NCBI GenBank assembly: GCA_037305845.1
Contig: CP147778.1
Coordinates: forward strand, 1,440,001-1,504,000
Direction: 5' to 3'
DNA from: Candidatus Freyarchaeum deiterrae
GTDB lineage: Archaea; Asgardarchaeota; Jordiarchaeia; Jordiarchaeales; Jordiarchaeaceae
Length of the DNA: 64,000 nucleotides
Within the stretch, counting starts at the first letter, position 1. Each line of letters opens with the position of its first letter. This document shows positions 11,545 to 61,840 of this stretch, piece after piece. Position numbers and translations under genes: made by a program. The notes beneath the pieces were generated by a model that was given only the letters and a program-made list of their open reading frames with translations, had not been told where the DNA came from and searched no databases.

Positions 11545-13040
11545 TTACCCCTTTACAACACCAAGAGGACGCAAACGTGCAACCATAGACGCTATCCCCG
11601 CATCATGCGAAGCTTGCACCACTTCATCAACATTCTTGTAAGCCTCTGGGGCTTCCTCACTCACAACTTGAGCACTAGCCGCCCTAACAAAAATCCCCTT
11701 CGACAAGAGTTTGCTTTTCACACCCTCACCTGAAAAGCTCTTAATCGCCTGAGTCCTACTCATCACACGGCCGGCACCATGTGCGGTGGAGCCGAAACTA
11801 AGCTCCATTGCTTCTTTTCGTCCTCTAAGTATGTAGCTGGCGGTTCCCATGGTTCCAGGTATTATCACCGGCTGACCTATGCTTCTATATTTTTGTGGAA
11901 CTTCTGGATGGTCTGGCGGAAAGGCGCGTGTGGCTCCTTTTCTGTGTACATAAACAGAGTGAGTCTCACCGTTAACCTTGTGCTTTTCTATCTTTGCTAT
12001 GTTATGCGCCACATCGTAAATCAGATGCATATCAAGATCTTCAGCTGACCTTCCAAATACGTTTTGAAAGGATTCTCGTATCCAGTGTGTTATACTCTGT
12101 CTATTTGCCCAGGCGAAATTCGCGGAGGCAGCCATAGCCGCTAAGTAGTCTTGTCCCTCAGGACTGTTTCCAGGAGCGGCTGCTAGTTCTCTATCGGGTA
12201 AATTAATTCCGTATTTTCTTGAGGCGTTTTCCATGATTCGTAGATAGTCAGAGCAGACTTGATGTCCTAGACCCCGTGAACCCGTGTGAACCATTACGGT
12301 AACCTGATTCTCACTTAATCCTAAGACCTTGGCTGCGTCTTGATCAAAAATTTTCTCTACGTATTGAATCTCGAGAAAATGATTACCTGCCCCTAATGTT
12401 CCCACTTGGGCAACCCCTCTCTCCTTTGCTTTGCTTGACACTTTTGAAGTGTTCGCTCCCTCCAATTTTCCATTCGCTTCGCAGTTTAAAGCGTCCTCTT
12501 CCCATCCGAAACCGTTTTTAATAGACCAGCTAACGCCCTCGGAAAGAATTCCGTCCAAGTCTCTAGCTGAGAGTTTAATTTTTCTCTTAGATCCCAAACC
12601 ACTAGGCACATTATCAAACATTTCTTTTGTTAACTCTTTTATCTTGGATTCAGCGTCCTTCCTCTCAAGATTGGTTTTAATCACTCTAACACCGCAATTG
12701 ATATCATACCCAACCCCGCCGGGACTTACAACTCCGTTGTCCTCAATATCAGTAGCGGCTACTCCGCCTATTGGAAAACCGTAGCCCTGATGAGCTTCCC
12801 TCAGTAGAGGACATCCTCTCCTGAATCGGGCAGGGTTACGGAGAATTTTTTTATGCCTGGCAGGCTGCATACGTTAACGGCTTGGATTAGAGTTTGATCC
12901 TTATAAATATCTTTAAGCAATACCTCGTTTGCAATAATTCTGGCTGGAACCCTCATGTAGGGTCGATAATCTTTAGGAATCTCCCAAATGTTTTTATTAA
13001 TCTGCTTAAGAGGAATATTTCTTGTACTCAAAACAATCAC
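11545..13040 (-). CDS. rtcB: RNA-splicing ligase RtcB; two exons (13040/13031-12825 and 12795-11545), about 485 aa spliced
   Basis: Exon 1 ends ..VTLPD, exon 2 starts [11 protein letters not shown]; DINCG, GNHF, HTGSRG, HN, HRKGA, HGAGR motifs intact. Confidence 0.96.
12796..12824 (-). other. 29-nt BHB-type intron in rtcB mRNA
   Basis: CCCG AU|U CAG-G-AGAGG AUGU CCUCU-A-CUG AGGG AA|G; excision restores LPD-AHQGYG; in-frame UGA inside. Confidence 0.88.
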
Positions 13041-13565
13041 CTCAGTTCAACAATAAATAAATCAATTCAGGGAGGGATATATTAGGTTAGAAATTTGACA
13101 GATTGATACTCCGCTTTGTTTAACATGGTTTATATCTGTAACTCTCTTAAAATATTAGTTGTATTTATTTTTAATGCGTATACCAAATTCCAAAGTCCAG
13201 AGAAACAGTTTATCACTATTGATTGTTCGGTGCTTCTCCGTTTTTCTTAGTAGGTATTCCTGGTTTTATATGCCACTTCAAAGAGTTGTTGTATATAAAA
13301 TTATCTAGTTTGCTCAGTAAGAAGATTAAGAATCTCTTAAAAGGGAAGTATTTTTAATTAAATCAGAGTTTTGATATTGAATAGAACCAATGACTTCAAT
13401 GAGAACCTAAGCTGAGAGCAGTTCTTAAATTGAAATTTAGGTTACTAGTATAGAACTAGCAAGCATTATTTCCATATTTTTGGGTACAAAGTAAGGAAGG
13501 TATGCGAAAAATTGAAAACTCCAAACACACAACTTAAAACCAAAAGAAAAGAGCGGCGATGAAGT

Positions 13566-15347
13566 ATGCACCTAAGACAACCCATATGCGTAGTACTGGG
13601 ACACATAGACAGCGGAAAAACCAGCATACTGGACAAAATAAGAGGAACCGCCGTACAAAAAAGAGAAGCAAGAGGCATAACCCAACACATAGGAGCAAGC
13701 ATGCTGGACGCAGAAACCATCAAAGCCATAGGAGGAGAACTCATCAAGACATTCAACATAACACTAACCATACCAGGCATCCTGGTTATTGACACACCGG
13801 GGCACGCGAGCTTCTATAACTTGCGTCGTCGTGGTGGTGCGGTTGCTGATTTTGCTATTCTTGTGGTGGATGTTTTGAGTGGTTTTCAGGCGCAAACCTA
13901 TGAGTGTGTTGATATTTTGAAGTCGCGTAAAACTCCTTTTTTGATTGCCGCTAATAAGATTGATAGGATTAATGGTTGGGTTCCTTCGGGTTCTCTTTCG
14001 GTTCTTAAGAGTTTGGGTAGTCAACCTGATTTTGCTTTGCGTTTTTTGGATGAGCGTATTTATGAGATTATGGGTGACTTGTCACGTCTGGGTTTTCCCG
14101 CAGATCGTATTGACAGGGTGCGTGACTTTACTCGTAATATTGCCATAATTCCTACTAGCGCTGCTAATGGTGAGGGAGTTGCTGAATTATTAGTCGTTCT
14201 GGCAGGTTTGGCTCAGCAGTATTTAGCTAAACGTTTAGAGGTTAGTGAAGGCCCCGCCAGAGGAGTGGTTTTGGAGGTAAAAGAAGAGCCAGGTTTGGGT
14301 CACACTGTAGACGCAATAATTTATGATGGTATTTTGCGCAGTAATGATTCGATAGTTTTCGGTGGTTTGGGAAAGGCGGTTAGTACCTCGATTCGCGCTT
14401 TATTGTTGCCCAAGCCTTTAGATGAGATGCGCGACCCACGCCAACGTTTTGACAGCGTTGATGAAGTTGTGGCTGCTGCCGGCGTGAAAATCGTTGCTCC
14501 TGGTTTAGAAGGGGTAGTTGCAGGAGCTCCTTTACGCGTTATTGATAGTTCTTCCAGGCTTGAAGAAATTGAAAAAGAAGTTCAAGCGGATGTAGAGGCA
14601 ATACGCATTGAGACCAGTAAAAGTGGCGTTATTCTTAAGGCGGATACTTTGGGCAGTTTAGAGGCTTTAGTGAATTATTTTAGTGAACGCAAGGTTTCTG
14701 TGCGTTTAGCAGATGTGGGTGACGTAAGCAAACGCGATGTGGTTGAGGCAGCGGTGGTTGCAGATAAGGAGCCTTTTAACGCAGTAGTTTTGGCTTTTAA
14801 TGTGCGTATTTTGCCGGATGCTGAAGAAGAAGCGGAGGTTTCCGATGTCCCCATTTTTCGAAGCGATGTAATTTATGGTTTGTTTGAGGATTATGATAAG
14901 TGGGTTGCTGAGAAGAGGGAGGAAGAACGGCGGCGAGCTTTAGTGGGAGTGGTACGCCCGTTTAAGATTAAGATTTTGCCGGGCTTCATTTTTCGAAAGA
15001 GCAAGCCTGCCGTCGTAGGTGTGGAAGTTTTGGAAGGCTCAATGATCCCCAAAGTCAGACTAGTTAATGGGGATAATCGGCGCGTGGGCGAGATTATGCA
15101 GATTCAGGACGAGGGCGAAACACGACAGGTGGCACATAGGGGTACTAATGTAGCTATTAGTATTCGCGGCCCTACAGTAGGACGTCAAATTCACGAGGGC
15201 GATGTTTTGTATTCGGATATTGCAGAAGTTCAACTTGAAAAGCTCTCGCGAGAACTTGGGGAGGAGCTTAGTCCAGACGAAATGAATGTATTGAATGAAA
15301 TCAAGAAATTCAAAAGAAAGGAACTTTTTAACTTTGACGAAAGTTGA
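13566..15347 (+). CDS. infB: Translation initiation factor IF-2 (aIF5B)
   Basis: LRQPI..VLGHIDSGKT, ITQHIGA, DTPGH, NKID, DTLGSLEAL. Confidence 0.98.
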   Translation: MHLRQPICVVLGHIDSGKTSILDKIRGTAVQKREARGITQHIGASMLDAETIKAIGGELIKTFNITLTIPGILVIDTPGHASFYNLRRRGGAVADFAILVVDVLSGFQAQTYECVDILKSRKTPFLIAANKIDRINGWVPSGSLSVLKSLGSQPDFALRFLDERIYEIMGDLSRLGFPADRIDRVRDFTRNIAIIPTSAANGEGVAELLVVLAGLAQQYLAKRLEVSEGPARGVVLEVKEEPGLGHTVDAIIYDGILRSNDSIVFGGLGKAVSTSIRALLLPKPLDEMRDPRQRFDSVDEVVAAAGVKIVAPGLEGVVAGAPLRVIDSSSRLEEIEKEVQADVEAIRIETSKSGVILKADTLGSLEALVNYFSERKVSVRLADVGDVSKRDVVEAAVVADKEPFNAVVLAFNVRILPDAEEEAEVSDVPIFRSDVIYGLFEDYDKWVAEKREEERRRALVGVVRPFKIKILPGFIFRKSKPAVVGVEVLEGSMIPKVRLVNGDNRRVGEIMQIQDEGETRQVAHRGTNVAISIRGPTVGRQIHEGDVLYSDIAEVQLEKLSRELGEELSPDEMNVLNEIKKFKRKELFNFDES

Positions 15348-15492
15348 TTAGAGGAGTGCCAGTTTTTGGAAGATTTTATATGATACGAGGCAATTTTGGC
15401 AGATTCGCTTAATAATATGAGAAACACTAATTGCGAATGGTTTAAAAGGAGTTCTTGTTAGTATTTTTTGTACCTATTGGAGGTTATTGTTA

Positions 15493-15861
15493 ATGCCCGG
15501 ATTTAAACTGGTTATTTCTGATCCAGAGAAAGGTCGTTCTTTGCAGATTGAGGTTGATGAAGCCAAGTCTCGTTCCTTGTTTGGTACGCGTATAGGCCAG
15601 AAGGTCGATGGTGGACCTCTGGGTTTCGGTGGGTATGAGTTTTTGATTACTGGGGGAAGTGATAAGGATGGTTTTCCAATGCGTAAGGGCATTCACGGTC
15701 CTATGAGAAAGAATATTCTTATGAGCACCGGCCCAGGTTTTCATCCTCCATACGAGGGACAGCGGAAGAGAAAGAAAGTTCGAGGGGATACTATCTCAGA
15801 GGATATGGCTCAAGTGAACATGAAGATTGTTAAAATGGGTGCTAAGAACATCTTTGAATGA
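15493..15861 (+). CDS. rps6e: Ribosomal protein S6e
   Basis: FKLVISDP, ITGGSDKDGFPM, VRG. Confidence 0.96.
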   Translation: MPGFKLVISDPEKGRSLQIEVDEAKSRSLFGTRIGQKVDGGPLGFGGYEFLITGGSDKDGFPMRKGIHGPMRKNILMSTGPGFHPPYEGQRKRKKVRGDTISEDMAQVNMKIVKMGAKNIFE

Positions 15862-15945
15862 TATGATGTTTATTGACCTATTTTTCTCGAATATTGGTGC
15901 TGCTGTCTTTATTTTCCCAGAATTCTGGAATTTGGAGGTTTTCTG

Positions 15946-16461
15946 ATGAGTACATATAAGTTGGGATTAGGTTCTACAGTAGAGTTACGGTTTGCATGTG
16001 ACGCTATGCTAGGACGCCTTGCACGGTGGCTTCGTTTACTTGGCTATGATACCTTTTATTCTTCTGAAATCAAGGACGCTGAACTTTTGGAGGTTTGTTC
16101 GCAAGGAAATTGGATTCTTCTCACTCGGGATGTGGAATTTTTTAAGCAAGCAGTTTTACAAGGTTTAAGAGCAAAGTTACTACAGGAGAATTCTTTTCAG
16201 AACCAGTTCGCCGAGGTTGTGGAGAGTTTCGGGTTAAATCTAAGAATTACGCCCGAAGGTTCTCGCTGTCCGACCTGCAACGGGTTAATTCATAGTATTG
16301 ACAAAGAGGAAGTTAAGAATAAAGTTTCTGCGAATACCTTGAATTCCTACGATTCTTTTTTTATATGTTCTAACTGCGGTAAGGTATACTGGATGGGCCG
16401 GATGTGGCGATCTATAGTTAGAATTTGCGAAATGGTTAGCATGAAGTTAGGGAAAAGTTAG
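15946..16461 (+). CDS. Mut7-C RNase (PIN-like) domain protein
   Basis: DAMLGRLARWLRLLGYD, LLTRD, RCPTCNG, CSNCGKVYW.G. Confidence 0.92.
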   Translation: MSTYKLGLGSTVELRFACDAMLGRLARWLRLLGYDTFYSSEIKDAELLEVCSQGNWILLTRDVEFFKQAVLQGLRAKLLQENSFQNQFAEVVESFGLNLRITPEGSRCPTCNGLIHSIDKEEVKNKVSANTLNSYDSFFICSNCGKVYWMGRMWRSIVRICEMVSMKLGKS

Positions 16462-16505
16462 GTTTTTTTGAGCCAATGCATCTATTTTTTGAAAAAAAAT
16501 CGATT

Positions 16506-16663
16506 TTTTGATAATTATATTTCTCTTTATAATATAAAAGTTTTTATGAAAGATTAAATTTTTCGATATATATGATTTTCAAGTTATTACATATATTTTT
16601 ACAAGAAATATTAGATATTTTGATAATTATATTTCTTTTTATAATTTGAAAGATTTTAGGAAA
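16506..16663. repeat. Imperfect AT-rich 46-bp direct repeat (16506-16551, 16618-16663)
   Basis: TTTTGATAATTATATTTCT(C/T)TTTATAAT... 41/46 identical by manual alignment. Confidence 0.7.
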
Positions 16664-16746
16664 AATTTTTTTATAAGTGTTGTTATGAGATTTTTGAACT
16701 AAACTTAATGTGATTTCTAGACTCTTATTCTGAGAGGAATGGTATA

Positions 16747-17361
16747 ATGACTCTTGAGGAAGGTAGATTTCTAGTTAAGCTCGCTCGTCGGGCTGCTGAG
16801 ACTTATGTTAAAGAAGACGTGAAGATTAAGGTTCCTGAAGAAACCCCAGCTAAGCTGCTTGAGAATAGTGGCGTTTTTGTGACTCTGAATACTGTTTCTA
16901 AAGGAGGAGATAAGCGGTTGCGCGGTTGTATAGGTTTCCCTCTCCCCTACCTTCCTTTGGCTCAGGCGGTCATCGAGTCAGCAATCAGCGCTGCCAGCGC
17001 AGATCCCAGATTTCCTCCCGTGGAGCCTAGTGAATTGGACGATATTGTGGTCGAGGTTACTGTTTTAACACCTCCTACTTTAATCGAAGCTAAAGAGCCT
17101 AAGGAATACCCCGACAAGATTAAAGTTGGTAAACATGGTTTGGTAGTTGAACGGGGGCCCTACAAAGGGTTGCTTCTCCCTCAGGTTCCAGTGGATTGGA
17201 ACTGGAATGAGGAAGAGTTCTTGTGTGAATGCTGTGTTAAAGCGGGGCTTCCACCCGATTCGTGGTGCGATAAGAAAACCAAAGTCTATTGTTTTCAAGG
17301 AATTATTTACGAGGAAGAAAGTCCTAATGGAGAGATAGTTGAGCGTTCATTGAAGGAGTAG
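16747..17361 (+). CDS. AMMECR1/TIGR00296-family protein
   Basis: GVFVTL, LRGCIG, DPRF, GLLLPQV. Confidence 0.95.
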   Translation: MTLEEGRFLVKLARRAAETYVKEDVKIKVPEETPAKLLENSGVFVTLNTVSKGGDKRLRGCIGFPLPYLPLAQAVIESAISAASADPRFPPVEPSELDDIVVEVTVLTPPTLIEAKEPKEYPDKIKVGKHGLVVERGPYKGLLLPQVPVDWNWNEEEFLCECCVKAGLPPDSWCDKKTKVYCFQGIIYEEESPNGEIVERSLKE

Positions 17362-17383
17362 TTATTTACGGAGGCTTTCAGGA

Positions 17384-18559
17384 ATGAGAGTGTACTTTTC
17401 CCCAAATGGAATGGCTCTGGGTCATGCGGGACGCCTTGTTCCTATTGCAAAGAAACTAATCAGTAATGGCGACGAGGTTCTCTTCTCAACTTATGGAGAT
17501 GCGGTGGGTTTTGTTAAGGCGGCGGGTATGCCTGTGGTTAGTGTACCTAGAATGGGACTTGTTGAGAGTCCAGATGGTACTATTGAGATGCTCAAAACCA
17601 GTATTAGATGGCCTAAGTATGTTTGGATTTTTATGAAGCAGGTCATTTCCGAAATTAGGCTCTTGAATAGTTTCAAGCCCAGTGTAGCGGTATCAGATTC
17701 TCGTTTGTCCACTGTTTTGGCCTGCTGGTTGTTGAGAATTCCTTGTCTTCTGTTACTGCATCAGATTAAGTTGCTAGTACCTCACAAGAAGAAGCTCAGT
17801 AGTTTTAAGGAAAAGCTGAAGCATTTTGCGGAGTGGTTCATTCTTTACACTACCCACCTACTTTGGAATAGGAGCACTAAGATTCTTGTTCCAGATTTCC
17901 CACCTCCGTATACCATATTTAAATCTAATCTTGACGTCCCGGAGAAGCTCATGAGTAAGGTGGAATTTGTTGGACATGTAATTGAAGAACCTCAGTCTCT
18001 GCTACCGAGCCAAAAGGATTTGAGGAAAAAGTTGGGGTTCGATGATCGCCCACTCATCTTTGTCGGGGTTTCTGGAACCAAAAAAGAGAGAGAACTTCTA
18101 GCTATGAGGCTTGATGAAATTTTTAGCGAGTTTCCCGATGAGTATAATATTGTAATGACTTTGGGAAGACCAGATAAACCGGACAACTTTGTGCAAAAGG
18201 GTAATCTGCGTATCTATAATTGGGTCACAGATAGATATCCTTTAATTAAGGCCTGTGACCTCGTGGTATCTAGATCAGGTCATAACACTTTAGCTGAGTC
18301 CATGTATTATGGTAAACCGTCAATTCTTATCCCAACGCCTGCACACACTGAACACCAAGAGAACTCCAAGTCTGCAGAGCGTATGGGTATTGCTAAAGTC
18401 GTGCAACAAAAGGATCTATCGAAAAATATACTGTTGGAGAGTGTAGAGGAAATCCTTAACCACTCAGAGTATAAAACGCGTATAAACAGAATCCAGAAAA
18501 AAATTTCAAATTTGGATGCTATTCAATCGATTATAGATGCCGTCTATCAATTTGGATAA
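17384..18559 (+). CDS. GT-B glycosyltransferase (MurG/GT28-like)
   Basis: G.ALGHA.R N-motif; SRSGHNTLAE..YYGKPSILIP...EHQ.N. Confidence 0.85.
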   Translation: MRVYFSPNGMALGHAGRLVPIAKKLISNGDEVLFSTYGDAVGFVKAAGMPVVSVPRMGLVESPDGTIEMLKTSIRWPKYVWIFMKQVISEIRLLNSFKPSVAVSDSRLSTVLACWLLRIPCLLLLHQIKLLVPHKKKLSSFKEKLKHFAEWFILYTTHLLWNRSTKILVPDFPPPYTIFKSNLDVPEKLMSKVEFVGHVIEEPQSLLPSQKDLRKKLGFDDRPLIFVGVSGTKKERELLAMRLDEIFSEFPDEYNIVMTLGRPDKPDNFVQKGNLRIYNWVTDRYPLIKACDLVVSRSGHNTLAESMYYGKPSILIPTPAHTEHQENSKSAERMGIAKVVQQKDLSKNILLESVEEILNHSEYKTRINRIQKKISNLDAIQSIIDAVYQFG

Positions 18560-18585
18560 AATATAATTTTGAGAGGTTTGTCCTT

Positions 18586-19443
18586 TTGGTTGAGGATAAG
18601 TTAACAGAGAGAAAGGTATTAGAATTTTTAGAAGAAGATCTGGGGTTTGGAGATATTACCACAAATGCACTCATCCCAGAGCAGACCACGGCTGAGGCTA
18701 GGATAATTTCCAAAAGAGAGGGAGTAATTGCAGGTATACAAGAAGCAGACATTATTTTTAAGCTCTTAAATATTGACTCTAAACCGCTAGTAAAAGACGG
18801 AGACAGGGTTACGCGTGGGCAAATTATAGTCGAGTTGTCTGGTTCCGCTAGAAACATCCTAATGGCGGAACGAACGGTTCTAAACATAATGATGCGTATG
18901 AGCGGTATTGCCACTGAGACATCTAAACTAGTGGATGCCGCGAAAAAGATTAACCCTAAACTTAGAATAGCTTGTACCCGCAAGACTACTCCGGGTTTCA
19001 GATATTTTGAGAAGAAAGCCGTCGCCCTGGGTGGCGGTGACATTCATCGGTTCCGACTTGATGACATGGTTCTAATCAAAGACAACCACATAAGTGTAGT
19101 TGGCAGTGTTACTGAAGCGGTGAACCGAGCCAGATCTAAATGTAGTTTCTCCAAAAAAATTGAGATAGAAGTTGAAAACGCTGACCAAGCAATCGAAGCA
19201 GCGAGAGCAGGAGCAGACATAATCATGTTTGATAATATGTCTCCCGAGGATGCCAAAAAAACACTGGAACTCTTAGAGAAGAAAGGACTAAGAGACAGCG
19301 TACTCATTGAATTATCCGGTGGGATTACCCCAGAGAATATCGATAGGTACATGGCTCTTAATGTTAATATTATATCCATGGGTTACATCATCCACTCCAT
19401 AAGGGCCTTAGACATTAGTTTAGATTTCAAAAAAATGAGGTAA
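18586..19443 (+). CDS. nadC: Quinolinate phosphoribosyltransferase
   Basis: ED...GDITT, ER..LN, TRKTTPG, HR..L.D.VLIKDNH, DN, SGGI. Confidence 0.97.
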   Translation: MVEDKLTERKVLEFLEEDLGFGDITTNALIPEQTTAEARIISKREGVIAGIQEADIIFKLLNIDSKPLVKDGDRVTRGQIIVELSGSARNILMAERTVLNIMMRMSGIATETSKLVDAAKKINPKLRIACTRKTTPGFRYFEKKAVALGGGDIHRFRLDDMVLIKDNHISVVGSVTEAVNRARSKCSFSKKIEIEVENADQAIEAARAGADIIMFDNMSPEDAKKTLELLEKKGLRDSVLIELSGGITPENIDRYMALNVNIISMGYIIHSIRALDISLDFKKMR

Positions 19444-20788: not shown

Positions 20789-20892
20789 ATCATTCGAAGG
20801 AATATTTCCGAAAATTGAGTACTAAAAAAGGTTTAAATACATCTTTTTACTTGGTTTTTGCACCTATAAGTTAATTTAGCTGAGGGAATTTA

Positions 20893-30515: not shown

Positions 30516-32450
30516 TTATCCCTCTAACCTTTGTTTTAATTTTTTACGAAGGAGTTCAGCCACTACTTTTCCGTCGATGTTGCCCCTAACTTTTTCCATC
30601 ACTTTACCCATCATAGGGCTAAACGCTCTTTCTCCGTTTTTTTCTATAAAGTCGCTGCTTTCATCAAGTATTTCATCGATTATTCCTTCAAGTTCCTCCG
30701 TGGTAATGGTTTCCAGTTTCAATTCTTTGAGAGCGTCCTCAACTGTAATTGAGGGAGATTTTCCAAGTACTCGAAGGACTTCCTCCACTGCCTCTTTTGC
30801 AATTTTACCTTCAGAGAGAAATTTGAAAGTCTCTTTAATTTTTTCTTGAGGTATTTCATCTGTTTGAATGTTCTCTCTATCCAGTGCTTTCATAGTTTGA
30901 AGAAGAGATACAGCAACGATCGTCGGATCTATTTTAATTTCTTTAACAATTTCCATGAAAAGCTCCATTTTTCCAGATCCCATCAATTCCTCTGCGAACA
31001 ATTCGTTTATCTTGTATTTCTTTGCCAAGCGTTTCTGAACCACCCAGGGATATTCTGGAAGGTTTTTTCTAATTGATTCTACTCTTTCTTTTTCTATAAC
31101 CAGTGGTGGCGAATCTGTATCGGGATATAGACGCGCCCCGCCATGTAACTCTCTTAAGAATTCGCTGTTGCCATTTTCTAGGGCTCTTCTGGTTTCTCTT
31201 AGTACACCCTTTAAGGCTCGCTTGGCGCGGCTAACGGCGTTATCCAATGCCTTTTGTGCTTTACTTTCATCTCCAATAACAATTGCATATGAGTCCATCT
31301 CGTCCAGAGCGAGAAAGCTTCGCAGCTTTGAATCCTCTTCCACACTGATGTTGTATTTATCAAGTTTTTCATCGGAATGGATAATGCCCTTTAGTCCGGT
31401 AATCACTGTTACTCTCTCAGCGATTTCCTTTCCAAAACTTTTTCCTGGTTGAACCTCTTTGCCTAATAATCCAGCAAATTTGGGCAGCTTTACCGACAGC
31501 ACTTTTTCTTCCTTTTTCTTATTTTTAATAATCTTGCATTTGGTAGAAGCGAAAATCTTGGAAGCATCTTTATATTCCGGTGAAAAGTCTTCTTCCTTTA
31601 CCCCTCGTTCTAATAGCTGCTTCTTAATGTCTAGTAGTGCAACTTGTCTTATTGTCTCATTTTCAGCTAGTCTAGGGATCCATTCTAACTTCTGGACTCC
31701 CTTGATTTCAACCCGCTCACCGCCCTCTATACTGACGTTAATATCCTGTCTTATGGTTCCAAGTCCCCTCTTTACCTTCTCTGTTGATCGTATAAGCATC
31801 CCTATCTTGTAAGCGGTTTTAAGAATTTCATCCGGATTTGTTATTTCCGGTAATGTAACGATTTCCACTAGGGGAATTCCCAATCTGTCTATTCTATAAT
31901 AAACTGTTTTCTCTTCTTCCCTAATTTTTCTAGCAGCATCCTCTTCTATACAAATAGTGGAGACTCCGATTTTCTTACCGTCGAGTGGTATGAAGCCGTC
32001 TGTTCCGATGATTAATGTGCGCTGAAATCCACAGGGAACTGATCCATCGAGATAGTTTTTTCGTAGGATGTGCAATTCGTCTATTACCTTTGCATTAAAC
32101 AGGAGTGAAATTTCAATACCTATGTCTATCGCTTCTTGGGAGATGTCAAAAGGAGGTGTTTGATGCTTGCAGGTGTTCTACATGCAAGTTTCATCTATCT
32201 CATATGTGCAGTTAACATCATTAAATCCTTCATATACGATAGTACGTCCTTTTTCATACTCAACTAGCATTGCTTCATCATACTTCCCCATCTCACCTAA
32301 TACTGGTCTAAAATATCTCTTAACTAGAAATTCGGGTTCATCGGTTTTTAGAATTGGCTGACAGAGACAGAATAGTTTGCGATTGGTTAGAAGCTCCTGG
32401 TGAATTTCAATTCCTGCCTTGAATCCTAGTTTTTCGTATTCTAGCTCCAA
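30516..32450 (-). CDS. gatE: Glu-tRNA(Gln) amidotransferase subunit E; two exons (32450-32190, 32159-30516), about 634 aa spliced
   Basis: Y..LG.K.GIEIHQ.L, KLFC, DE|TPP across junction, DGS...GFQRT, RGLGTIRQD, R.YP.TD. Confidence 0.95.
32160..32189 (-). other. 30-nt BHB-type intron in gatE mRNA
   Basis: GAUG AA|A CUUGCA ... UGCAAG CAUC AA|A; perfect 4-bp central helix; in-frame UAG inside. Confidence 0.9.
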
Positions 32451-42397: not shown

Positions 42398-42542
42398 GCA
42401 GGGATAGCCAAGTGGTAAACGTTAAACGTATCCGCAACGGCGCAGATAGTCTACAATGGTAGATAGCGTAAGCCTGGAGAACTTTCTTGGAAGCCTGTGA
42501 TCCGTAAGGATCGCGTGGGTTCAAATCCCACTCCCTGCGCCA
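42398..42542 (+). tRNA. tRNA-Ser(GGA) with three introns: 42418-42437 (21/22), 42446-42471 (29/30), 42480-42491 (37/38); CCA encoded
   Basis: Acceptor GCAGGGA/TCCCTGC-G-CCA, long variable arm, GTGGG-TTCAAAT-CCCAC; anticodon stem CAGGC/GCCTG forms after excision; mature 87 nt. Confidence 0.9.
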
Positions 42543-42629: not shown

Positions 42630-43672
42630 CTATTGGGTTTTTTCTTCTTTGTGTTTTTTCCATAGTGAGGGGTAGGTTCCGGGTTCCATTAGTACTCTGT
42701 CTACTTCTACTGCGATTCCGTGATTTGAAGAGTACATTTCTTCGCTGCTCATTTTTGAGCTGCCTAAAGCTACTGCTTCATTTTTGAGTGTGAAAATAGC
42801 AACAAGGTTCCTTACACCTATTTCGCTCTCTAGCTTTACTATTCCTGGGACTGTTAGGTTGGCGCCATGGCAGATAGAGTCCACGGCTGAGTCGCGTATG
42901 AATATTTTGGGTATGTGTTCTAATGCCTTTTCCATGGGTTGTATTATGTTTCTTAAGAAGGATTCATCTCCATCTTCCTTCCAAAAATGGTAAGCATCAA
43001 TAACATCATGCAGGTTTGCAAGAGTATCTTCTTTGAAAGGCCCGGTTCGGGTTCGTCTGAGTTCTTTCATATGGGCGCCGCAGCCCAAGATTTCACCAAT
43101 ATCGTGGCAGAGCTTTCTTATGTAGGTACCCGCCTCGCAACCAACGCGAAGAAGCCCGTTTCGAGCCTCCATCTCTTTTAATTCAATATAGTATATTTCC
43201 CTAATTCTAAGTCTTCTTCTAACGGAGGAGCGGAGTGGTGGGCGTTGATATATTGGCCCTACGAGCTCATTTACAACGTTCCTGAACTTCTCTTCTGGCA
43301 CGTCGCCGTGTAGTTGAATGACGCAGACGTATTCTTTCCCCGCCGGAAGAAGAGTCTGAACCACTTTGGTTGCTGATTCCAAAGCTACAGGGAGTACCCC
43401 GGTGACTTTGGGATTTCACTACTCCTCGCAAAATGCTAGAGGAGTTCTAGTGTCCCAGAGTGACCCGCCTTTTGAATATTGAGAATTTTTTTAACCCAGC
43501 TAACTACTTCATGCGAAGTTGGGCCAGGGGGCTTATCCACATTGATTATACCATTTTTTATGTATTCTTCTATTGGGCGTTGGTTGGGTGGGGTTCCATA
43601 CGTGGGGTCTGAAGTTGCTTCGGCTTTTTCAATTAATTCTCTTTTCTTGTCACTTGGTAAAAAGTGGTCCAT
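42630..43672 (-). CDS. cbf5: H/ACA pseudouridine synthase Cbf5; two exons (43672-43447, 43414-42630), 336 aa spliced
   Basis: [25 protein letters not shown] across junction, [11 protein letters not shown] domain. Confidence 0.97.
43415..43446 (-). other. 32-nt canonical BHB intron in cbf5 mRNA
   Basis: UGGGA CACU AG|A ACUCCUC...GAGGAGU AGUG AA|A UCCCA; splits the catalytic Asp codon G|AU. Confidence 0.96.
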
Positions 43673-53733: not shown

Positions 53734-53996
53734 TCTCATATCCTTTAAAAATATATAAAAAAACCTTTGTAAACTGATCTTAGAGTCTAATAAAAATTTT
53801 CTTAAAAAATGATAAGAAAAATTTTATATTTAACTACCCCATTCTACCCGTAACAAATATTAATTTAAATGTTATAGACTAGATGTTCATCAACATGAAT
53901 TCGATTAACGTTTTGCTAGGTCCAGAAATGGAGTATAATTAGCAACAGAAGCATCATTGCGAATGGTCTCACTAAAAACCTAAAGAAGGAAAGAAC

Positions 53997-54572: not shown

Positions 54573-54646
54573 ATTTATTTATTGTTTTTTAATTTAATAT
54601 TTTTAACAAGATTTATTATTTTCTAAATATACCATTAAAAATTAGT

Positions 54647-54676
54647 GCCCTGCTAAAGGGCTTTATTTTTATTTTT
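54647..54676. terminator. Short hairpin plus T tracts between convergent rpl6 and rps8
   Basis: GCCCT-GCTAA-AGGGC then TTTATTTTTATTTTT. Confidence 0.4.
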
Positions 54677-55078
54677 TTAATACACGTATGCGATTAGTCT
54701 ACCGCCTGTTTTTTGGGTTTTTGCCTCGTAGTGTGACATAACCCCATTTGGAGTTGACACTATTAGTACTCCAAAGTCTGGAGCGGGTAGATACTGAAAT
54801 TCCATTTTTTCGAAGTCTTTGTTTTTTACTGGGAATCGAGGTTTTATTACTCCACATTTATTTATTCTTCCAAGAAGTTGGACTCGGAATTTGCCGGCAC
54901 GCCCGTCATCTATGTACTCAAACTCCCCGATGTATCCCTGTTTTTGCATTACTCGGAGGACGCTTCCAATAAGTTTGGAAGCGATATTTATAGTCACTTC
55001 CCTTTTTCCTACGCTTTCACTATTACTTATGCTACAAAGGGCGCCCGCGACTGGATCATTTCTAGTCAAGCATTCCAC
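54677..55078 (-). CDS. rps8: Ribosomal protein S8
   Basis: [36 protein letters not shown]. Confidence 0.98.
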
Positions 55079-55087
55079 CTCTTATAT

Positions 55088-55234
55088 TCAATTATACTTT
55101 TTGAAGCCAATTTGTACAGCCTTTTCTCTGAAGCATCTTCTGCAAATATACAAGTTGTATCGCCTTATTATAGCTCTGTGGGTGCCACAGACTTTGCAAA
55201 CACGGCTGCCTCTACCAAATTTTTTCTTTGACAT
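55088..55234 (-). CDS. rps14: Ribosomal protein S14 (Zn type), 48 aa
   Basis: Not in ORF track; [17 protein letters not shown]...ICRRCFRE...GFKKYN. Confidence 0.96.
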
Positions 55235-55237
55235 GAT

Positions 55238-55813
55238 CTAATAGCTCTCCTCTTGCTCTTCTTTGAAGGAAACCCCGAACTCTTCTTCCATGAAAGTTAT
55301 TGTTTCCTCTTTAGTTACTTGATGTGAATGAGGAATCCTTCTACGCAAAAGTCTCCTTCTTTTAACCCTATATCCTGGGCGTTGCATAGCGACACAGATA
55401 TCCATACCGAATATACCTAGTTGTGGATCGTATCGAACTCCGGGAATCTCTATGTGCTCGGTGAGCCCAAAGGAGAAGTTTCCCATATTATCTATGGAGT
55501 TGGGGTCAAGCTTCATTTCCACGACTTCCAAAACTTTTCTTAAGAATTCTTTGGCCTTTTCGCCCCTAAGAGTTACCTTGCATGATATGGGTTCCCCTTT
55601 TCTTAATCCCCAGTCACGAATAGTTTTCTTAGATTTACATTGTACTGGTTTTTGTCCTGTTAAGCTTTCTAATACAGTGTTGGCTTTGACCAGTTTTTCT
55701 CCGCTACTACCTACCGCTAGATTGACCACTACTTTCTCAATGCGTGGTTTTCGCATCGGATATTCTACCCAATGTTTTAAAATTTGCTCTTTATCAATCG
55801 TCTCTTCGCTCAA
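55238..55813 (-). CDS. rpl5: Ribosomal protein L5
   Basis: IEKVVVN, TGQKP, KVTLRG, GNFSFG..EHI, GIFGMD. Confidence 0.98.
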   Translation of the reverse strand: MSEETIDKEQILKHWVEYPMRKPRIEKVVVNLAVGSSGEKLVKANTVLESLTGQKPVQCKSKKTIRDWGLRKGEPISCKVTLRGEKAKEFLRKVLEVVEMKLDPNSIDNMGNFSFGLTEHIEIPGVRYDPQLGIFGMDICVAMQRPGYRVKRRRLLRRRIPHSHQVTKEETITFMEEEFGVSFKEEQEESY

Positions 55814-55817
55814 AGTA

Positions 55818-56588
55818 TTAACTCTCCAGTGCTTTTTCTACAAGTTGAATTTCGGGTTTGCTTTCTCCCACAGGGAACACATAATCTAATGCGGTTTCGA
55901 AGATAGTACCATCCGGTGCTTCTAATGAAACCACGCTGGCGTGGGGCCCAAAACGTGGGATTATTTCCTTTATTTTTCCCTGAAATCCCATATTTTTGCC
56001 AGCAATTACAATAGCGAAATTCTTCTCCTTAAACGGAATGTGCCCGATTATTTCTTGATCCGGTATAGAAAGTTTTAATGCATCTCGTGTTTTATAGGGG
56101 ACTAACTCACTGGGAGATGCTTTGGGATTTTCCGTTCGGATTAGTATATTGCGTCCATCATGTAGATTTATTTGCAAATGGCCTCCCTTGACAGTGACCT
56201 TATTTGTTATTTGGCATAGTTTATAAGAGGCTTCTTCATTTCCAATGGGAATAGGTCTCAATCCCTTTTTCGATACGGGTAGTATACGATAAAATTGGTT
56301 TAGTTTGGGAATTTCAATTACATCCATCAGACCGACAGGAAACCTGTGGTCACGTCTAACTTGCCCATCAACCTTTATGTTTCCCTCTGAAAGGATAAGT
56401 TTCGCCTCACTAGATGTGTTACTGTATTGCAGAATTTCGCGAATCAGTATCATGAGAGGTAAACTTTCACTAGCACTATGTGGTCCTGCCCTAGGTTTGA
56501 CAACCCACTTGGTTTCCTTTCTGTGAATTGGCCATATTTTTGGCGCTGATATTCTTTTCTGCTGTTTTCTTCCACCATGTTTACCCAA
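55818..56588 (-). CDS. rps4e: Ribosomal protein S4e
   Basis: KR..AP..W, P..GPH, FPVGLMDV, LHDGRN. Confidence 0.97.
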   Translation of the reverse strand: MGKHGGRKQQKRISAPKIWPIHRKETKWVVKPRAGPHSASESLPLMILIREILQYSNTSSEAKLILSEGNIKVDGQVRRDHRFPVGLMDVIEIPKLNQFYRILPVSKKGLRPIPIGNEEASYKLCQITNKVTVKGGHLQINLHDGRNILIRTENPKASPSELVPYKTRDALKLSIPDQEIIGHIPFKEKNFAIVIAGKNMGFQGKIKEIIPRFGPHASVVSLEAPDGTIFETALDYVFPVGESKPEIQLVEKALES

Positions 56589-56589
56589 A

Positions 56590-56964
56590 CTAATCTACCT
56601 CTGCGGCTCCTGTTTTTCGTTTAATAATCTCTTTTCTTCTTTTGTCGTCTAGTTTAAGTTTGCCAATCATTACCTTGGAAGGGTGTATAGGATAAAAAAT
56701 CGTTTTGCCATCAGCTTTTTCTATGGTGGCTCCGGCTATCTGCACTCGATAGTTTTTTGTATCAATCTTTTCTATTTTGCCTTCCAAACCAGAGTATGAA
56801 CCAGACGTGACGACAACTTCGTCCTCTTTACGGAGAGGCATAGAAGTTATTCCGTATTTTGCTTTCAAATCTGGCGTCAAGGCTGCACTAACAGTTTTTC
56901 TCCTCTTATGAAGAGGAGCTGTGTAAGCCCTTTTTCTTTGGGTTCTTGGTTTTTTCGATTTCAC
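56590..56964 (-). CDS. rpl24: Ribosomal protein L24
   Basis: PR.QRK..Y.APLH, IHPSKV.I. Confidence 0.96.
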   Translation of the reverse strand: MKSKKPRTQRKRAYTAPLHKRRKTVSAALTPDLKAKYGITSMPLRKEDEVVVTSGSYSGLEGKIEKIDTKNYRVQIAGATIEKADGKTIFYPIHPSKVMIGKLKLDDKRRKEIIKRKTGAAEVD

Positions 56965-56986
56965 TGCCTTTAACTTCCTATAAGCT

Positions 56987-57412
56987 TTATACGATCATGC
57001 TTGCGACACCAGCCAAGCGTGACCAACGCTCCGCAGCCTCTTTAGCGATTGGCCCTCTAATTTCTGTGCCTTTAGGTTGACCATCTGGGCTGGTTATTAC
57101 TGCAGCGTTATCTTCGAATTGTACCCAATCACCATTTGGTCTGCGGAATGGTTTCTTTTGTCTTACAACTATTGCTCTTAATACCTGCCGCCGCATGTCA
57201 GGAGTTCCCTTCTTAACTGAGACCACGGTCATATCGCCAACTGTAGCAGCGGGTAACCTATTCAGTCGCCCCTTATATCCGATTACGTCAATTATTTCCA
57301 CTATCTTTGCGCCAGAATTATCAGCGCAAGGTACTTTTGCACCTACGTTTAATCCTCTAGATAGATCGGGAATGAATAATGCGCCTACTTTTCCACGGCC
57401 TCTTTTAGGCAT
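56987..57412 (-). CDS. rpl14: Ribosomal protein L14
   Basis: [24 protein letters not shown]. Confidence 0.98.
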
Positions 57413-57742
57413 TTATTTTTCCTCCTTTTTCTCTACAACTATAAATGAAACCGTTTTGCTTATTCGGCGGCACTCCATAAATTTCACTAAATCTCCAACT
57501 TTAACATCAATACAAGGAGGTTTGTGAGCGGGAGTGTGTGAATGTCTACGTTCATATCTATGGAACTTTCTAATATACCAGAGATAATCACGTCTGACTA
57601 TTACGGTGTCTTTCATCTTATCCGTGACGACTAACCCCTCGAAAAGCCTTCCTCGGACTGATATTTTCCCGTGGAAAGGACAATGTTCATCATCGCACTT
57701 GTTTTTTGGAGGGGTAACTTCTATTCCTATATTTCTTGACAT
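57413..57742 (-). CDS. rps17: Ribosomal protein S17
   Basis: C.D..CPFHG, RYERR, ECR.ISKT. Confidence 0.98.
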   Translation of the reverse strand: MSRNIGIEVTPPKNKCDDEHCPFHGKISVRGRLFEGLVVTDKMKDTVIVRRDYLWYIRKFHRYERRHSHTPAHKPPCIDVKVGDLVKFMECRRISKTVSFIVVEKKEEK

Positions 57743-57841
57743 TACGATTCCTCTATATTGAGTTCATTTTTTACAAAATCGGTAAGAGCAATAGTCTAAG
57801 TTAACACATATTTTATGGATGAACCGATTTTTCGAGATTAT

Positions 57842-58144
57842 TTAAAAGTTTTGTGGACTTTTAATTTTATATATGTTTTTTGTACGATCCTCCGGTCTTC
57901 CTATGATTTTTTTACCTTCAACTTCTATTGCCGAACCATCGGAAAGTACGAATTCAAAGGTTGATACGCTTTTCGGAATTTTTTTTATCCCGTTACTTTC
58001 TATAACAATTATGTTTTTTGTTTCATCAATAACTATTCCACTAATTAAATAACCTTTGTGTGTACTCTTAACTACTCTAACTGGTAATCCAATTAATTCA
58101 TGGTATATTATGTTTTCCCTTGTTCTTTTTTTTGAAGGTTTCAT
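57842..58144 (-). CDS. rnp1: RNase P protein component 1 (Rpp29)
   Basis: HELIGL, G.VIDET.N, IPK, GRPEDR. Confidence 0.94.
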   Translation of the reverse strand: MKPSKKRTRENIIYHELIGLPVRVVKSTHKGYLISGIVIDETKNIIVIESNGIKKIPKSVSTFEFVLSDGSAIEVEGKKIIGRPEDRTKNIYKIKSPQNF

Positions 58145-58184
58145 ATGTTTTGTTAATTTTCTTGCTTAATAAAAGTTTCAAACA

Positions 58185-58397
58185 CTATTTTTCTTTTTCA
58201 GGTTTTTTCTCATTAGTTACTGTAAGAATTCTTGCTATTGTTCTTCTAATCTCTTTGATTCTACCCGGATTTTCGATTGCACCACCCGAAGCTTGTAAAG
58301 CCCTCTGTGCTAACAGCTCAGATCTGTACTCATCCAGTTTCTTCCCTAGCTCTTCCGGGGTCCATTTTCTAACATCCTTCATTCTGACTACGGGCAT
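58185..58397 (-). CDS. rpl29: Ribosomal protein L29
   Basis: ENPGRI.EIRRTIARILT. Confidence 0.96.
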   Translation of the reverse strand: MPVVRMKDVRKWTPEELGKKLDEYRSELLAQRALQASGGAIENPGRIKEIRRTIARILTVTNEKKPEKEK

Positions 58398-58428
58398 TTC
58401 TATACCTCAATTATATTATTTTTAGATT

Positions 58429-59094
58429 CTACTCCCCGCCTTCCGCGCCTTCTCCCTCTGCTTTTACTTCCGCCTCATGTTCACCCTCAGCAGTCCCCTC
58501 AGGTTCCACAATTTCTATATCATCCGGTAAATGTGAATTGGGAAGCATTATACTGACGTGTACACCAGTTATTCCTGGTTTACTCAAAGCGTGGGCAACG
58601 GCATCGTCAACAAATAGAAGCGCCGGCTCACCAGTTTTTGAAATGAATCCATCCCTAAATTTTTGGTATTTTGCGCGCTGACTTGTAAGTTTTCCACTAA
58701 CCTTTATTTCAACACCCTTGGCACCAGCTGCCATTACTCTTCTAAGAATTGAGTATGCGGCTCTTCTGAAGTGAATTCCTCTTTCCAAGGCGGATGCTAG
58801 ACGTGTTGCCATTACACGGGCATTAAGTTCCGGTTTTTCGATTTCATTAACTTCGATTTGAGGGTTCTCAACTCCAAATTTACTTTCTAAAGCTTCGGTA
58901 AGGTCTCTCACAGTACGTCCTCTTCTTCCAATAACTAAACCGGGACGTGCTGCATGAATTATTACCCGTGTCCCTAGAGCGGTCTTTTGAATATCCACCT
59001 TTCCATACCCAGCCTTCTTAAGCTCATTGGCCAAGTAGTCATCTATTTCCGCCTTTCTTATTCCTCTTTCAATAAAATGATCCTTTGCTGGCAT
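58429..59094 (-). CDS. rps3: Ribosomal protein S3
   Basis: AGY, RPG.VIGRRG, FRRAAY, GA.G.EI.VSGKL. Confidence 0.98.
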   Translation of the reverse strand: MPAKDHFIERGIRKAEIDDYLANELKKAGYGKVDIQKTALGTRVIIHAARPGLVIGRRGRTVRDLTEALESKFGVENPQIEVNEIEKPELNARVMATRLASALERGIHFRRAAYSILRRVMAAGAKGVEIKVSGKLTSQRAKYQKFRDGFISKTGEPALLFVDDAVAHALSKPGITGVHVSIMLPNSHLPDDIEIVEPEGTAEGEHEAEVKAEGEGAEGGE

Positions 59095-59108
59095 TATGCT
59101 CCTTCCAA

Positions 59109-59594
59109 TTACTCTTCAGCTGATATTCTTTCTTCTTCAAGAACAATTTCGACATGAGTTAAATTTCTGTATTTGGGTGATGTTCTTCCAAAAGCACGCG
59201 GCATAGCTCGCTTAATTATGCGTCCGTGTTCAGTCGCCGCATGAATGATACGTAAACTATCGGTGTCCAAGCCCTTGTAGCTTGCAATTCCCTCAACATT
59301 ATCGAGAATTTTTAATATAGCCCGGGCAGCCTTTACGGGATAACCTCCAGTATGCCATTTATGGAGACCCTTGTGATGCGCCCTTAGTTTATTGTATCTC
59401 TTAAAGGGAACCATCTGCTTCATTTCGATGACTGCTTCTAAATATTCCTTTGCGTCATCTAGCATCTTACCCTTGATGCTAAGGCATATTTCGCGTGCAT
59501 GTTTTGGCGAAATTCGAAGATCACGCCCACTGCCTTTCGCAGTACGAGCGGGATCCAGTCCAAACACCGAATATCCAAAGTTAGGCATCCGCAC
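59109..59594 (-). CDS. rpl22: Ribosomal protein L22
   Basis: ISPKH..EI, VPFKR, YPVKA, PRAFGR. Confidence 0.97.
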   Translation of the reverse strand: MRMPNFGYSVFGLDPARTAKGSGRDLRISPKHAREICLSIKGKMLDDAKEYLEAVIEMKQMVPFKRYNKLRAHHKGLHKWHTGGYPVKAARAILKILDNVEGIASYKGLDTDSLRIIHAATEHGRIIKRAMPRAFGRTSPKYRNLTHVEIVLEEERISAEE

Positions 59595-59856
59595 ACACCT
59601 ATATACTCATGTGAGTTATATCCACACTAAGCGACGTATAAAAACGTTTTGCTTTTATAATAATCCGATAGCTTGTAGCAACCAGTTTTAAAGGGTAATC
59701 TAATAATTTTCAAGTTTTTTTATCAGTAAACCTTTTAGACCTTATTTACATATAAAATCAAATGAAGTTTATTTATTGATTCAAGATTAAGTTAATTATT
59801 GCTTAATGTCTTGATTCTTAATTCAACGTGTCTAAAATTGTAATGGAGGAAATGAA

Positions 59857-60288
59857 TTGAGTGGTATTGCAGTTGGTGATTTCTTTAAAGAGCTATCAGC
59901 TCTTCTCGGATCGCGGGTTGAAGTTAACACCGAAATCGGAAAATCTTACAATGGTATCCTCAAAGGATTTGACAGAACCACACTCAGTATAGTATTAGCG
60001 GAAGCTAAGGATAATAAAGGAACTTATTATCACCGCATATTTATACGAGGCGAAAAGATCAATGAAATAATAAAAGCAGAGGAACCCTTTGACATGAAAG
60101 GACTTTATTTTGAACTCAGAAAAAGTTACCCCCCTGGGGAAGTAGAGTTTTTAGAAGACAGCCGAATTATACTTGTTCTAAAGAAGATAAGAGTAACCGA
60201 GGACGGGGTTGAAGGAGAGGGGCCCCTAGCAGACAGGATAAGACAGGTATATGACAAATATATTCAAGAGAAAAAACCAAAGCAGTAA
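59857..60288 (+). CDS. Lsm/Sm-like RNA-binding protein with C-terminal domain (SmAP3-type)
   Basis: Sm1 (GKSY.G.L.GFD..LSIVL) and Sm2 (IFIRGE.I) plus about 65-aa C-domain. Confidence 0.88.
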   Translation: MSGIAVGDFFKELSALLGSRVEVNTEIGKSYNGILKGFDRTTLSIVLAEAKDNKGTYYHRIFIRGEKINEIIKAEEPFDMKGLYFELRKSYPPGEVEFLEDSRIILVLKKIRVTEDGVEGEGPLADRIRQVYDKYIQEKKPKQ

Positions 60289-60389
60289 CCAACCAATTTT
60301 TTCTATTCGTAGCAAAGACACAACAGTAGGGTGAACTTTGGTTCGTATGTAGCATAATGACCCGTTGCAAAAGGTACTCATAGTGTTTT

Positions 60390-60739
60390 CTATTCTACCT
60401 TAAGTGGAAACGTGTAAATTCTACATAGAGCCACTGCTTTCCAAGGGTCCAGCAACCCCTGCTTCTGTTGATAATCTTTTCTTGCCTTTTCTTCCCTCGC
60501 TTCAATGCAACTTTTGCACCGAGGATGCCTCGGATCGATTAGCCCAGCCTGCGGCTGTGTGGCCCTTCACATGAAGCGCAGTGAAGCATTAGAACAGGCA
60601 GATTTTCACTGATTTCTATGCGAAAATACTCGTTGCCATCAAACTCATCCTTAAAATCGGGCCAAATTCCGTAAAGATTCTGAGACTCAAGAACTTCTTT
60701 TAAACGAATGAATATTTTTTCGAAACTCGTCATCTCCAT
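60390..60739 (-). CDS. Hypothetical 2x CxxC protein; two exons (60739-60559, 60538-60390), 109 aa spliced
   Basis: Spliced: ...HCASCEGP-L-DPRHPRCKSCIEARE...WKAVALCRIYTFPLKVE. Confidence 0.8.
60539..60558 (-). other. 20-nt BHB intron in CxxC protein mRNA
   Basis: G GGCC AC|A CAGCC GCA GGCUG GGCU AA|U C; exon-1-frame UAA ends the intron. Confidence 0.82.
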
Positions 60740-60989
60740 ACACCACTCATAATTTCTCGATACTCCTAACTTTTAAAGACAAAAAATTTCTGAGAATTAA
60801 TGGAGGAAGCTCTTTACACTTTGATCATGAGCCTTATCAATTCTTTAAGAGCTCTATCCAAATACCTCCGGTAATTTACTATTCTTGGTTTAGAATTAGT
60901 TTAATTTAAATTCTAGTAATATCTAAGATAGATTCCTCAACGTTTTCCAGATTGTAGACGATACAAAAAGCCCTTGCCGCTTTTTTAAA

Positions 60990-61640
60990 CTATTTTTCTT
61001 TGCAGAATTTTTGGATATATTCAACAGCGTATTCCAATGCTTGATCCAAATCTTTTTCGCTTATTCCAGGAACCCCGCAGGACATTAAAATAATTTTTTG
61101 GGTTTTTAGAGTTATTTTCGTATCGTCAGAATCGCGATAGGGATAAACAGCTACAAGCCGGTTATCATCAGACACAACTATTTCGCCCCCATTGAGACTT
61201 TTTGGTTTCTCCATCCCTATGCCTAGGAACATCTCGCCAACAATTGAAAATCGCATAGTTAAACTGCCAACAACAGTATCCACGTCAAATGCTGCAATTG
61301 GTACTCCGCTCGTTATAGATGCTAAATTGTAGGCGTCAACAGCAGTATTTATCTTTGGAATAGGGTTTTCTTGGAGAATCCGTCTAATTAGAGCCTCAGA
61401 AGCGGGGCGGATTTTTGTGGGGTCGATGCCTATTTTCCAGAAGAAATCCCGGTATTTCCGCATCTTCTCATCATTTTTTAGACTCTCAAGATCGTATTTC
61501 CCTTTTATCTTCGAAAAAACCGATTTTTTGAATTCTTCAAGTTCACTTTTATCCCTCTCTATACGCACCCCATCAACCACCACAATTTTTGCGTTTAAAT
61601 CGGGAAACCTTTCTCTAATCTCTTCGTCGATAACAAGCAT
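60990..61640 (-). CDS. Standalone B3/B4 (PheRS-beta-like tRNA editing) domain protein
   Basis: YRDF.W..GIDPTK.RP.SEAL.RR, IN..VD.YN. Confidence 0.9.
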   Translation of the reverse strand: MLVIDEEIRERFPDLNAKIVVVDGVRIERDKSELEEFKKSVFSKIKGKYDLESLKNDEKMRKYRDFFWKIGIDPTKIRPASEALIRRILQENPIPKINTAVDAYNLASITSGVPIAAFDVDTVVGSLTMRFSIVGEMFLGIGMEKPKSLNGGEIVVSDDNRLVAVYPYRDSDDTKITLKTQKIILMSCGVPGISEKDLDQALEYAVEYIQKFCKEK

Positions 61641-61689
61641 GTTAATCCCCTGCGAGAAAAAGGTAATTAAAAAATTTCAAAAGTTTTAG

Positions 61690-61840
61690 TGGTGGGCAGG
61701 AGAGGAACTTCCGCATATCACAGGAAGTGATACGCTTTTGAACCCCTTTAAGGAACACTTAAACTGTGTTTGACCTCCTGAGCCCAAGTCAGGAATCATA
61801 CCAAGTTTTCCGCTACACATTAGCTCTAGACTACCTGCCC
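61690..61840 (-). tRNA. tRNA-Pro(TGG) with three non-canonical introns: 61806-61825 (15/16), 61748-61771 (48/49), 61707-61736 (59/60); CCA encoded
   Basis: Acceptor GGGCAGG/CCTGCCC-A-CCA; CCTGA-CTTGGGC-TCAGG arm; T arm AGGGG-TTCAAAT-CCTCT after excision; mature 77 nt. Confidence 0.92.

Follow-up and report, generated by a model that had tools for sequence, protein, structure and literature searches.

How can four protein-coding genes, each broken by a short insert that carries a stop codon in the upstream reading frame, still specify full-length proteins? A stretch of 64,000 nt (hereafter, the window) of Candidatus Freyarchaeum deiterrae (CP147778.1; genome size 3,576,204 bp, single contig) raises this question, as its rtcB, gatE and cbf5 genes and a gene for a CxxC...CxxC protein are interrupted in this way, all four inserts being on the minus strand. 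According to the available part of its description, the genome was completed by manual curation and checked with Nanopore and PacBio reads (PMC11291895). A preliminary description of the window had proposed that the inserts are bulge-helix-bulge (BHB) introns like those of archaeal tRNAs. We are highly confident that they are genuine introns of mRNAs, which the tRNA-splicing pathway removes. The genes and their introns are the following.

11545..13031, minus strand: rtcB, RNA-splicing ligase; 485 amino acids once spliced, presumed TTG start, single copy
12796..12824, minus strand: rtcB intron, 29-nt BHB; phase 0, LPD^AHQGY; TGA in the exon-1 frame; central helix CCCG/AGGG (3/4 pairs)
30516..32450, minus strand: gatE, Glu-tRNA(Gln) amidotransferase subunit E; about 634 amino acids once spliced, presumed start
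32160..32189, minus strand: gatE intron, 30-nt in-frame BHB; phase 0, IDE^TPPF; TAG inside; central helix GATG/CATC
42630..43672, minus strand: cbf5, pseudouridine synthase; 336 amino acids once spliced
43415..43446, minus strand: cbf5 intron, 32-nt BHB; phase 1, splits the catalytic Asp codon (nt 1/2) of GTLDPK; central helix CACT/AGTG
60390..60739, minus strand: gene for a conserved CxxC...CxxC protein of 109 amino acids with no assigned function; the sister family and presumed Odin-like genomes have intact orthologues
60539..60558, minus strand: CxxC-gene intron, 20-nt BHB; phase 1, EGP^LDPR; central helix GGCC/GGCT; terminal TAA is the exon-1-frame stop

The inserts have the places and lengths given in the preliminary description, and its junctions stand as well: the BHB cut rule restores at each of them the sequence of intron-less orthologues, and the exon-1 frame meets a stop within every insert. 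The first exon of rtcB aligns to residues 3 to 65 of Pyrococcus RtcB, ending at Asp65 (P. horikoshii numbering); the intron lies directly 3′ of the codon for the aligned Asp, and the RtcB motifs are intact in the spliced product. The genome contains no intact second copy of rtcB, gatE or cbf5, all of which are single-copy genes. Pfam, NCBIfam and Atlas assign nothing to the CxxC protein. In rtcB, an upstream ATG in the exon-2 frame opens an unspliced open reading frame of 441 amino acids (11545-12870) that excludes the Asp65 region. This frame is likely incidental, because four congeners, in which 423 codons are open, do not retain the longer frame.

The architecture proposed as common to all inserts held for the central helix and the bulges. 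The four pairs of the central helix are complete in gatE, cbf5 and the CxxC gene, whereas rtcB has three of four in F. deiterrae and all four in four congeners. When the motifs were tested against the strict hBHBh′ form, the inner helix was present in every one, and the outer helices were weak apart from that of cbf5, which makes most of the motifs relaxed. Folding energies were significant for gatE (z = -2.6) and cbf5 (-3.7), and not significant alone for rtcB (-1.2) and the CxxC gene (-0.3). A random coding site with a span of 20 to 40 nt passes the BHB test in 0.25% of cases, or 1.3% if shifts of ±2 nt are allowed. No flanking direct repeats were found around the inserts.

Comparison with relatives indicated that this pairing is maintained. 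Families are labeled f1 (the genus of F. deiterrae), f2 (its sister family), f3 (presumed Odin-like), f13 (which includes Atabeyarchaeum), f16 and f18. An intron of 26 to 41 nt interrupts cbf5 at the same base in 6/6 f1, 5/5 f2, 2/2 f13, 2/2 f16 and 1/1 f18 genomes and is absent from the other 14. Its central helix occurs in nine types among 37 distinct introns, all fully paired, a count that does not represent separate events since the genomes are related. The gatE intron is common to the 11 genomes of the order (29 to 35 nt), and a synonymous GAT/GAC change in its exon is mirrored in the intron (GATG/CATC versus GACG/CGTC). A compensatory change is also seen in pcm, interrupted in 6/6 genomes examined (CGCC/GGCG versus CACC/GGTG). 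The rtcB intron was found at all five loci of the genus and in none of 25 others. Within the genus, five genomes have the CxxC-gene intron (20 to 25 nt), as does one from f2; the gene is uninterrupted in four genomes from f2 and three from f3, reading GPLDPRH or GPSDPRH at the site. Both exons of all four genes have low nonsynonymous relative to synonymous substitution rates (dN 0.04-0.17 versus dS 0.6-3; dN/dS about 0.03-0.2), and on these values both are evidently under purifying selection. Local conservation at the four intron sites ranks between the 72nd and 99th percentiles.

The phenomenon extends well beyond the window. Altogether, 21 introns were verified in 19 genes; an intron-less orthologue was available for 20 of them, and in those 20 cutting after the second base of each bulge gave a product matching it. 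Fourteen of the 21 inserts split a codon. Beyond the four genes above, the hosts are those of FBPase, alba, mvhD, hdrC, porA, nadE, ppsA, moaE, a radical SAM gene and tyrS, as well as ahcY (with three introns), ychF, pcm, selD and a LIMLP_15305-like gene. The names FBPase, ppsA, moaE, ahcY, ychF, pcm and radical SAM gene are ones we presume from motif recognition. As a motif-free test, the proteins encoded by 400 kb of an intron-poor relative were aligned to the F. deiterrae genome (327 genes). This yielded eight clean, short, frame-breaking inserts, all eight with BHB geometry at the site defined by homology; in the window it covered 43 genes, of which only rtcB, gatE, cbf5 and the CxxC gene were interrupted. 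An intrinsic scan with strict cut-offs returned 10 to 12 hits for the true geometry and 0 to 1 for decoys. With loose cut-offs chance hits dominate, and three decoy geometries gave counts equal to the true one. The expectation of many more cases genome-wide was thus borne out, but scaling from four per 64 kb overstates their number: rates of 1.4% (outside the window) to 2.4%, applied to about 2,600 coding frames, give an extrapolated estimate of some 30 to 70 introns.

Protein searches also recovered intron-less contigs of congeners, all from one set of sequencing runs. For the rtcB gene of a congener with 90% amino acid identity, a contig of run SRR28530379 encodes 485 amino acids with LPDAHQGY. 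The contig of run SRR28530383 is identical to it over 4,161 nt, with no mismatches, except for the 29-nt intron, and the ends of the deletion cannot slide. Similarly, for alba of a congener, the contig of SRR28530383 carries a 30-nt intron that is missing, to the exact base, from those of SRR28530378 and SRR28530379, with no mismatches over 13,155 nt, and alba of a second species shows an equal intron-only difference between two runs. These differences match what would be expected of RNA versus DNA libraries, or of spliced versus precursor libraries; the argument is strong, though not final.

The enzymes required are encoded in the genome. It has two EndA subunits, and the catalytic one, closest to Aeropyrum EndA, has the Crenarchaea-type loop with a Lys44 equivalent, which is linked to broad specificity. 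As conservation shows, the last bases of exon 1 pair with four bases near the 3′ end of the intron, leaving two 3-nt bulges around an inner hairpin. By precedent from cbf5 and tRNAs, we propose that an (alpha-beta)2 EndA cleaves each bulge 3′ of its second base and that RtcB then joins the exons. A message left unspliced would terminate early, yielding only a short, nonfunctional peptide. Of the 14 frameshifting introns, 13 have a stop in the frame of exon 1, against 7.8 expected on shuffling (P ~0.001); for the other frames the figure is 8/28. This bias is to be read with the caveats that the scan filter slightly favors nearby stops and that fixed terminal bases account for two of the 14 stops. 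Such a stop is likewise present in all 37 distinct orthologous introns of 3n length. Our interpretation of the bias is that selection favors rapid termination when messages are left unspliced.

Several points weigh against this account. For F. deiterrae itself, splicing is deduced from DNA and not from RNA reads, and the EndA/RtcB step on Asgard substrates is extrapolated from the cbf5 and tRNA precedents. The rtcB motif is relaxed in this species, with three of four central pairs. The intron-less contigs come from congeners, from libraries that may be of RNA or DNA, and they are long enough to look partly DNA-derived; no intron-less cbf5 contig was found in a comparison that covered rtcB, alba and cbf5.

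If the introns are spliced, do they also regulate? EndA and RtcB capacity might gate the synthesis of tRNA-maturation enzymes, and rtcB, dependent on its own product, would then form a feedback loop. This would fit introns in rtcB, gatE, cbf5, tyrS and selD, early stops that make expression all-or-none, and the second species' alba contig, which keeps the intron in one run and lacks it in a sibling run, so that splicing may be partial. Nevertheless, we consider it unlikely. Most of the 19 hosts are metabolic or otherwise unrelated to tRNA (e.g., porA, hdrC, mvhD, nadE, ahcY, ppsA, FBPase, moaE, pcm), the rtcB intron is restricted to the genus, and several introns are patchy within it (nadE, hdrC, mvhD and two of ahcY). 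Thus, mRNA introns of the EndA/RtcB type are supported, but the specific tie to tRNA-maturation enzymes suggested in the preliminary description is not, the window being itself a cluster of translation genes. That RtcB needs itself is no paradox, because daughter cells inherit the enzyme; feedback is possible. Doubtful, too, is a regulated, genome-wide layer of non-spliceosomal splicing, in which dozens of genes would depend on EndA/RtcB throughput, the ligase would require itself, and selected stops would silence unspliced messages. Were it true, a living prokaryote near the eukaryotic root would face the conflict of splicing with coupled translation that is frequently used to explain how the nucleus arose. 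Rather than regulation, we favor tolerance: tRNA-type introns would spill over into mRNAs, be gained and lost piecemeal, and persist where they are cleanly excisable, often in conserved motifs, and nothing found here points to a designed regulatory circuit.

Alternatively, the intron-less contigs could be DNA-level variants in co-occurring strains, the inserts being excised or lost precisely as DNA and not spliced from RNA. The contigs, of up to 13 kb and spanning divergent genes, are DNA-like, and genomes do differ by the precise presence or absence of introns. However, the contigs compared are otherwise identical over 13 kb and 4 kb, and two genes and two species show this within one run set; the inserts lack the direct repeats; and intron-bearing genomes have no other copy of the essential genes, hence splicing would still be required. 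We find this explanation very improbable. Almost no credence is left for ribosomal bypassing, by which full proteins would be made without splicing. An early stop followed by a hairpin does resemble known hop elements, but a programmed bypass should have matching take-off and landing codons and preserve whole codons, whereas 14 of the 21 inserts split one; the catalytic Asp codon of cbf5 arises only by nucleotide joining, the exon-intron pairing is under selection, and joined sequences exist. Introns of group I or II or with homing endonucleases were rejected, as the inserts are only 20 to 73 nt long (one is 191 nt), with no ribozyme core or reading frame of hundreds of nucleotides, and Rfam searches of the window and of the ahcY locus were negative. 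Pseudogenes or assembly errors, suggested by databases that list truncated products only, have practically no chance of being the answer in a curated, long-read-checked genome (PMC11291895) that agrees with three independent assemblies (99.97 to 100% identity over the window, cbf5 insert included), with inserts shared across genomes and purifying selection on single-copy essential genes; two of the objections foreseen in the preliminary description, assembly artefacts and decay of these copies beside intact paralogues, are contradicted by this evidence.

Splicing by the tRNA pathway has precedents in archaeal mRNAs. A BHB intron in cbf5 pre-mRNA is known from Desulfurococcales and Sulfolobales (PMC2738675; Watanabe 2002 and Yoshinari 2006, cited there). 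The preliminary description knew of this crenarchaeal case, correctly, but a second is on record, Haloferax volcanii HVO_1309, in its 5′ untranslated region (PMC10485636, PMC7714728); a 2023 review counted these two spliced archaeal mRNAs and expected more (PMC10485636). The crenarchaeal cbf5 intron shares with ours its site (nt 1/2 of the catalytic Asp codon), the cut rule, the hetero-oligomeric EndA type and a similar size range, 16 to 44 nt there. The match of sites is one of position only, compatible with both common descent and parallel gain. Unlike that single gene, at least 19 unrelated genes are involved here, in an Asgard archaeon, with the ligase included, three introns in one gene, and ongoing gain and loss. 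The HVO_1309 mRNA is likewise cut by EndA at a BHB motif (PMC7714728) and spliced (PMC10485636), but it is a single case of an alpha2 enzyme acting on a 5′ untranslated region, with the reading frame unbroken. The multi-intron tRNA genes of Freyarchaeia and Atabeyarchaeia share the lineages, motif, sizes, repeated independent gains and lack of an obvious donor; the available parts of the two papers concern tRNA introns only, and "mRNA" and "cbf5" do not occur in that of the preprint (PMC11291895; bioRxiv 10.64898/2026.10.13.758758). No account of BHB introns in the mRNAs of multiple Asgard genes emerged from our literature search, which left most subscription papers outside.

The chemistry is thus known, and what is new is the scale, the hosts and the lineage. 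In eukaryotes, IRE1 together with RtcB or Trl1 splices XBP1 or HAC1 mRNA, a protein nuclease and a tRNA ligase serving one regulated target, and ciliates have tiny spliceosomal introns biased to in-frame stops. The proposed exon joining and the stop bias, respectively, are alike in F. deiterrae, but the nuclease differs and the ciliate introns are spliceosomal, so these may be taken as analogies only, and no link to spliceosomal introns is shown. Archaeal mRNA splicing was formerly a two-gene curiosity; here it would be routine in a relative of eukaryotes, reaching the essential genes rtcB, gatE, tyrS and cbf5, and it offers a prokaryotic system for testing how cells handle translation of unspliced messages.

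The distribution of the introns suggests continuing turnover. In a wider set of 80 archaeal cbf5 loci, 30 have the intron. Among these are loci of Bathyarchaeia, Culexmicrobium, Methanomethylicota, Thermofilaceae and one Pyrodictiaceae record, whereas all records of Thermococci, Methanobacteriota, Hadarchaeota and Baldrarchaeia lack it. This range well exceeds that of Yokobori 2009, where cultured Pyrodictiaceae and Thermofilum lacked the intron (PMC2738675). Among congeners, nadE is interrupted in two of five examined; the hdrC and mvhD introns were found only in F. deiterrae among the genomes tested, two ahcY introns are patchy inside the genus, and the alba intron is present in some f2 genomes and absent from others. 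The gatE gene of a distant f13 genome has its own 41-nt BHB intron (AGGC/GCCT helix) 5 nt upstream of the F. deiterrae site, which suggests an independent gain in the same motif. These patterns suggest that introns have been gained repeatedly, at a restricted number of usable sites; the available part of a 2026 preprint argues likewise for tRNA introns (bioRxiv 10.64898/2026.10.13.758758). A search of the genome for sequences that could have donated the mRNA introns was unsuccessful, the top match being 17 nt of the cbf5 intron within another gene (E 0.003), probably by chance. Closely related genomes that differ by single introns open the arrival of BHB introns to direct study.

As had been anticipated, the interrupted genes are mis-called in databases. 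All close cluster representatives of cbf5 and rtcB are exon-2 fragments, and no full-length cbf5 of the genus was found among the protein clusters examined. Gene callers read through the in-frame 30-nt alba intron as TAG=Gln; introns with in-frame stops can mimic stop-codon reassignment. Asgard gene catalogues consequently lack some proteins and list others in truncated form, with effects on metabolic and phylogenetic inference.

Candidates lacking validation by orthologues were kept out of the count of 21. These include five geometry-only candidates at genome positions 987065, 2636158, 2285374, 2125908 and 2125731 (an HD-domain gene, leuC, a TIGR00375 gene and queE). A good-looking candidate in SRP54 was refuted by orthologues, and leads in rps26e, kae1 and a ferredoxin gene were not recovered with the scan filter and guessed ranges used. 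The ahcY introns (genome 1876203-1877066) are of 56, 29 and 191 nt; the longest is strongly structured, with no clear nested intron and no Rfam RNA, and its site is common only to the distant f13 genome mentioned above (34 nt there).

The same motif interrupts the two tRNA genes of the window, with six introns as originally described.

42398..42542, plus strand: tRNA-Ser(GGA) with three BHB introns, 42418-42437 (20 nt), 42446-42471 (26 nt) and 42480-42491 (12 nt)
61690..61840, minus strand: tRNA-Pro(TGG) with three BHB introns, 61806-61825 (20 nt), 61748-61771 (24 nt) and 61707-61736 (30 nt)

Counting these, nine of the ten introns start with A and eight end in AA, also as first noted. ARAGORN detects both tRNAs only with the introns taken out. 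On the whole genome it makes only 17 tRNA calls, several of them spurious, because most tRNA genes are multiply interrupted; 92-95% of tRNA genes have introns according to the available part of the F. deiterrae paper (PMC11291895). The T-loop intron of tRNA-Pro (61707-61736) has 13 nt in common with genome position 1513279, just outside the window, a weak match (E 0.75).

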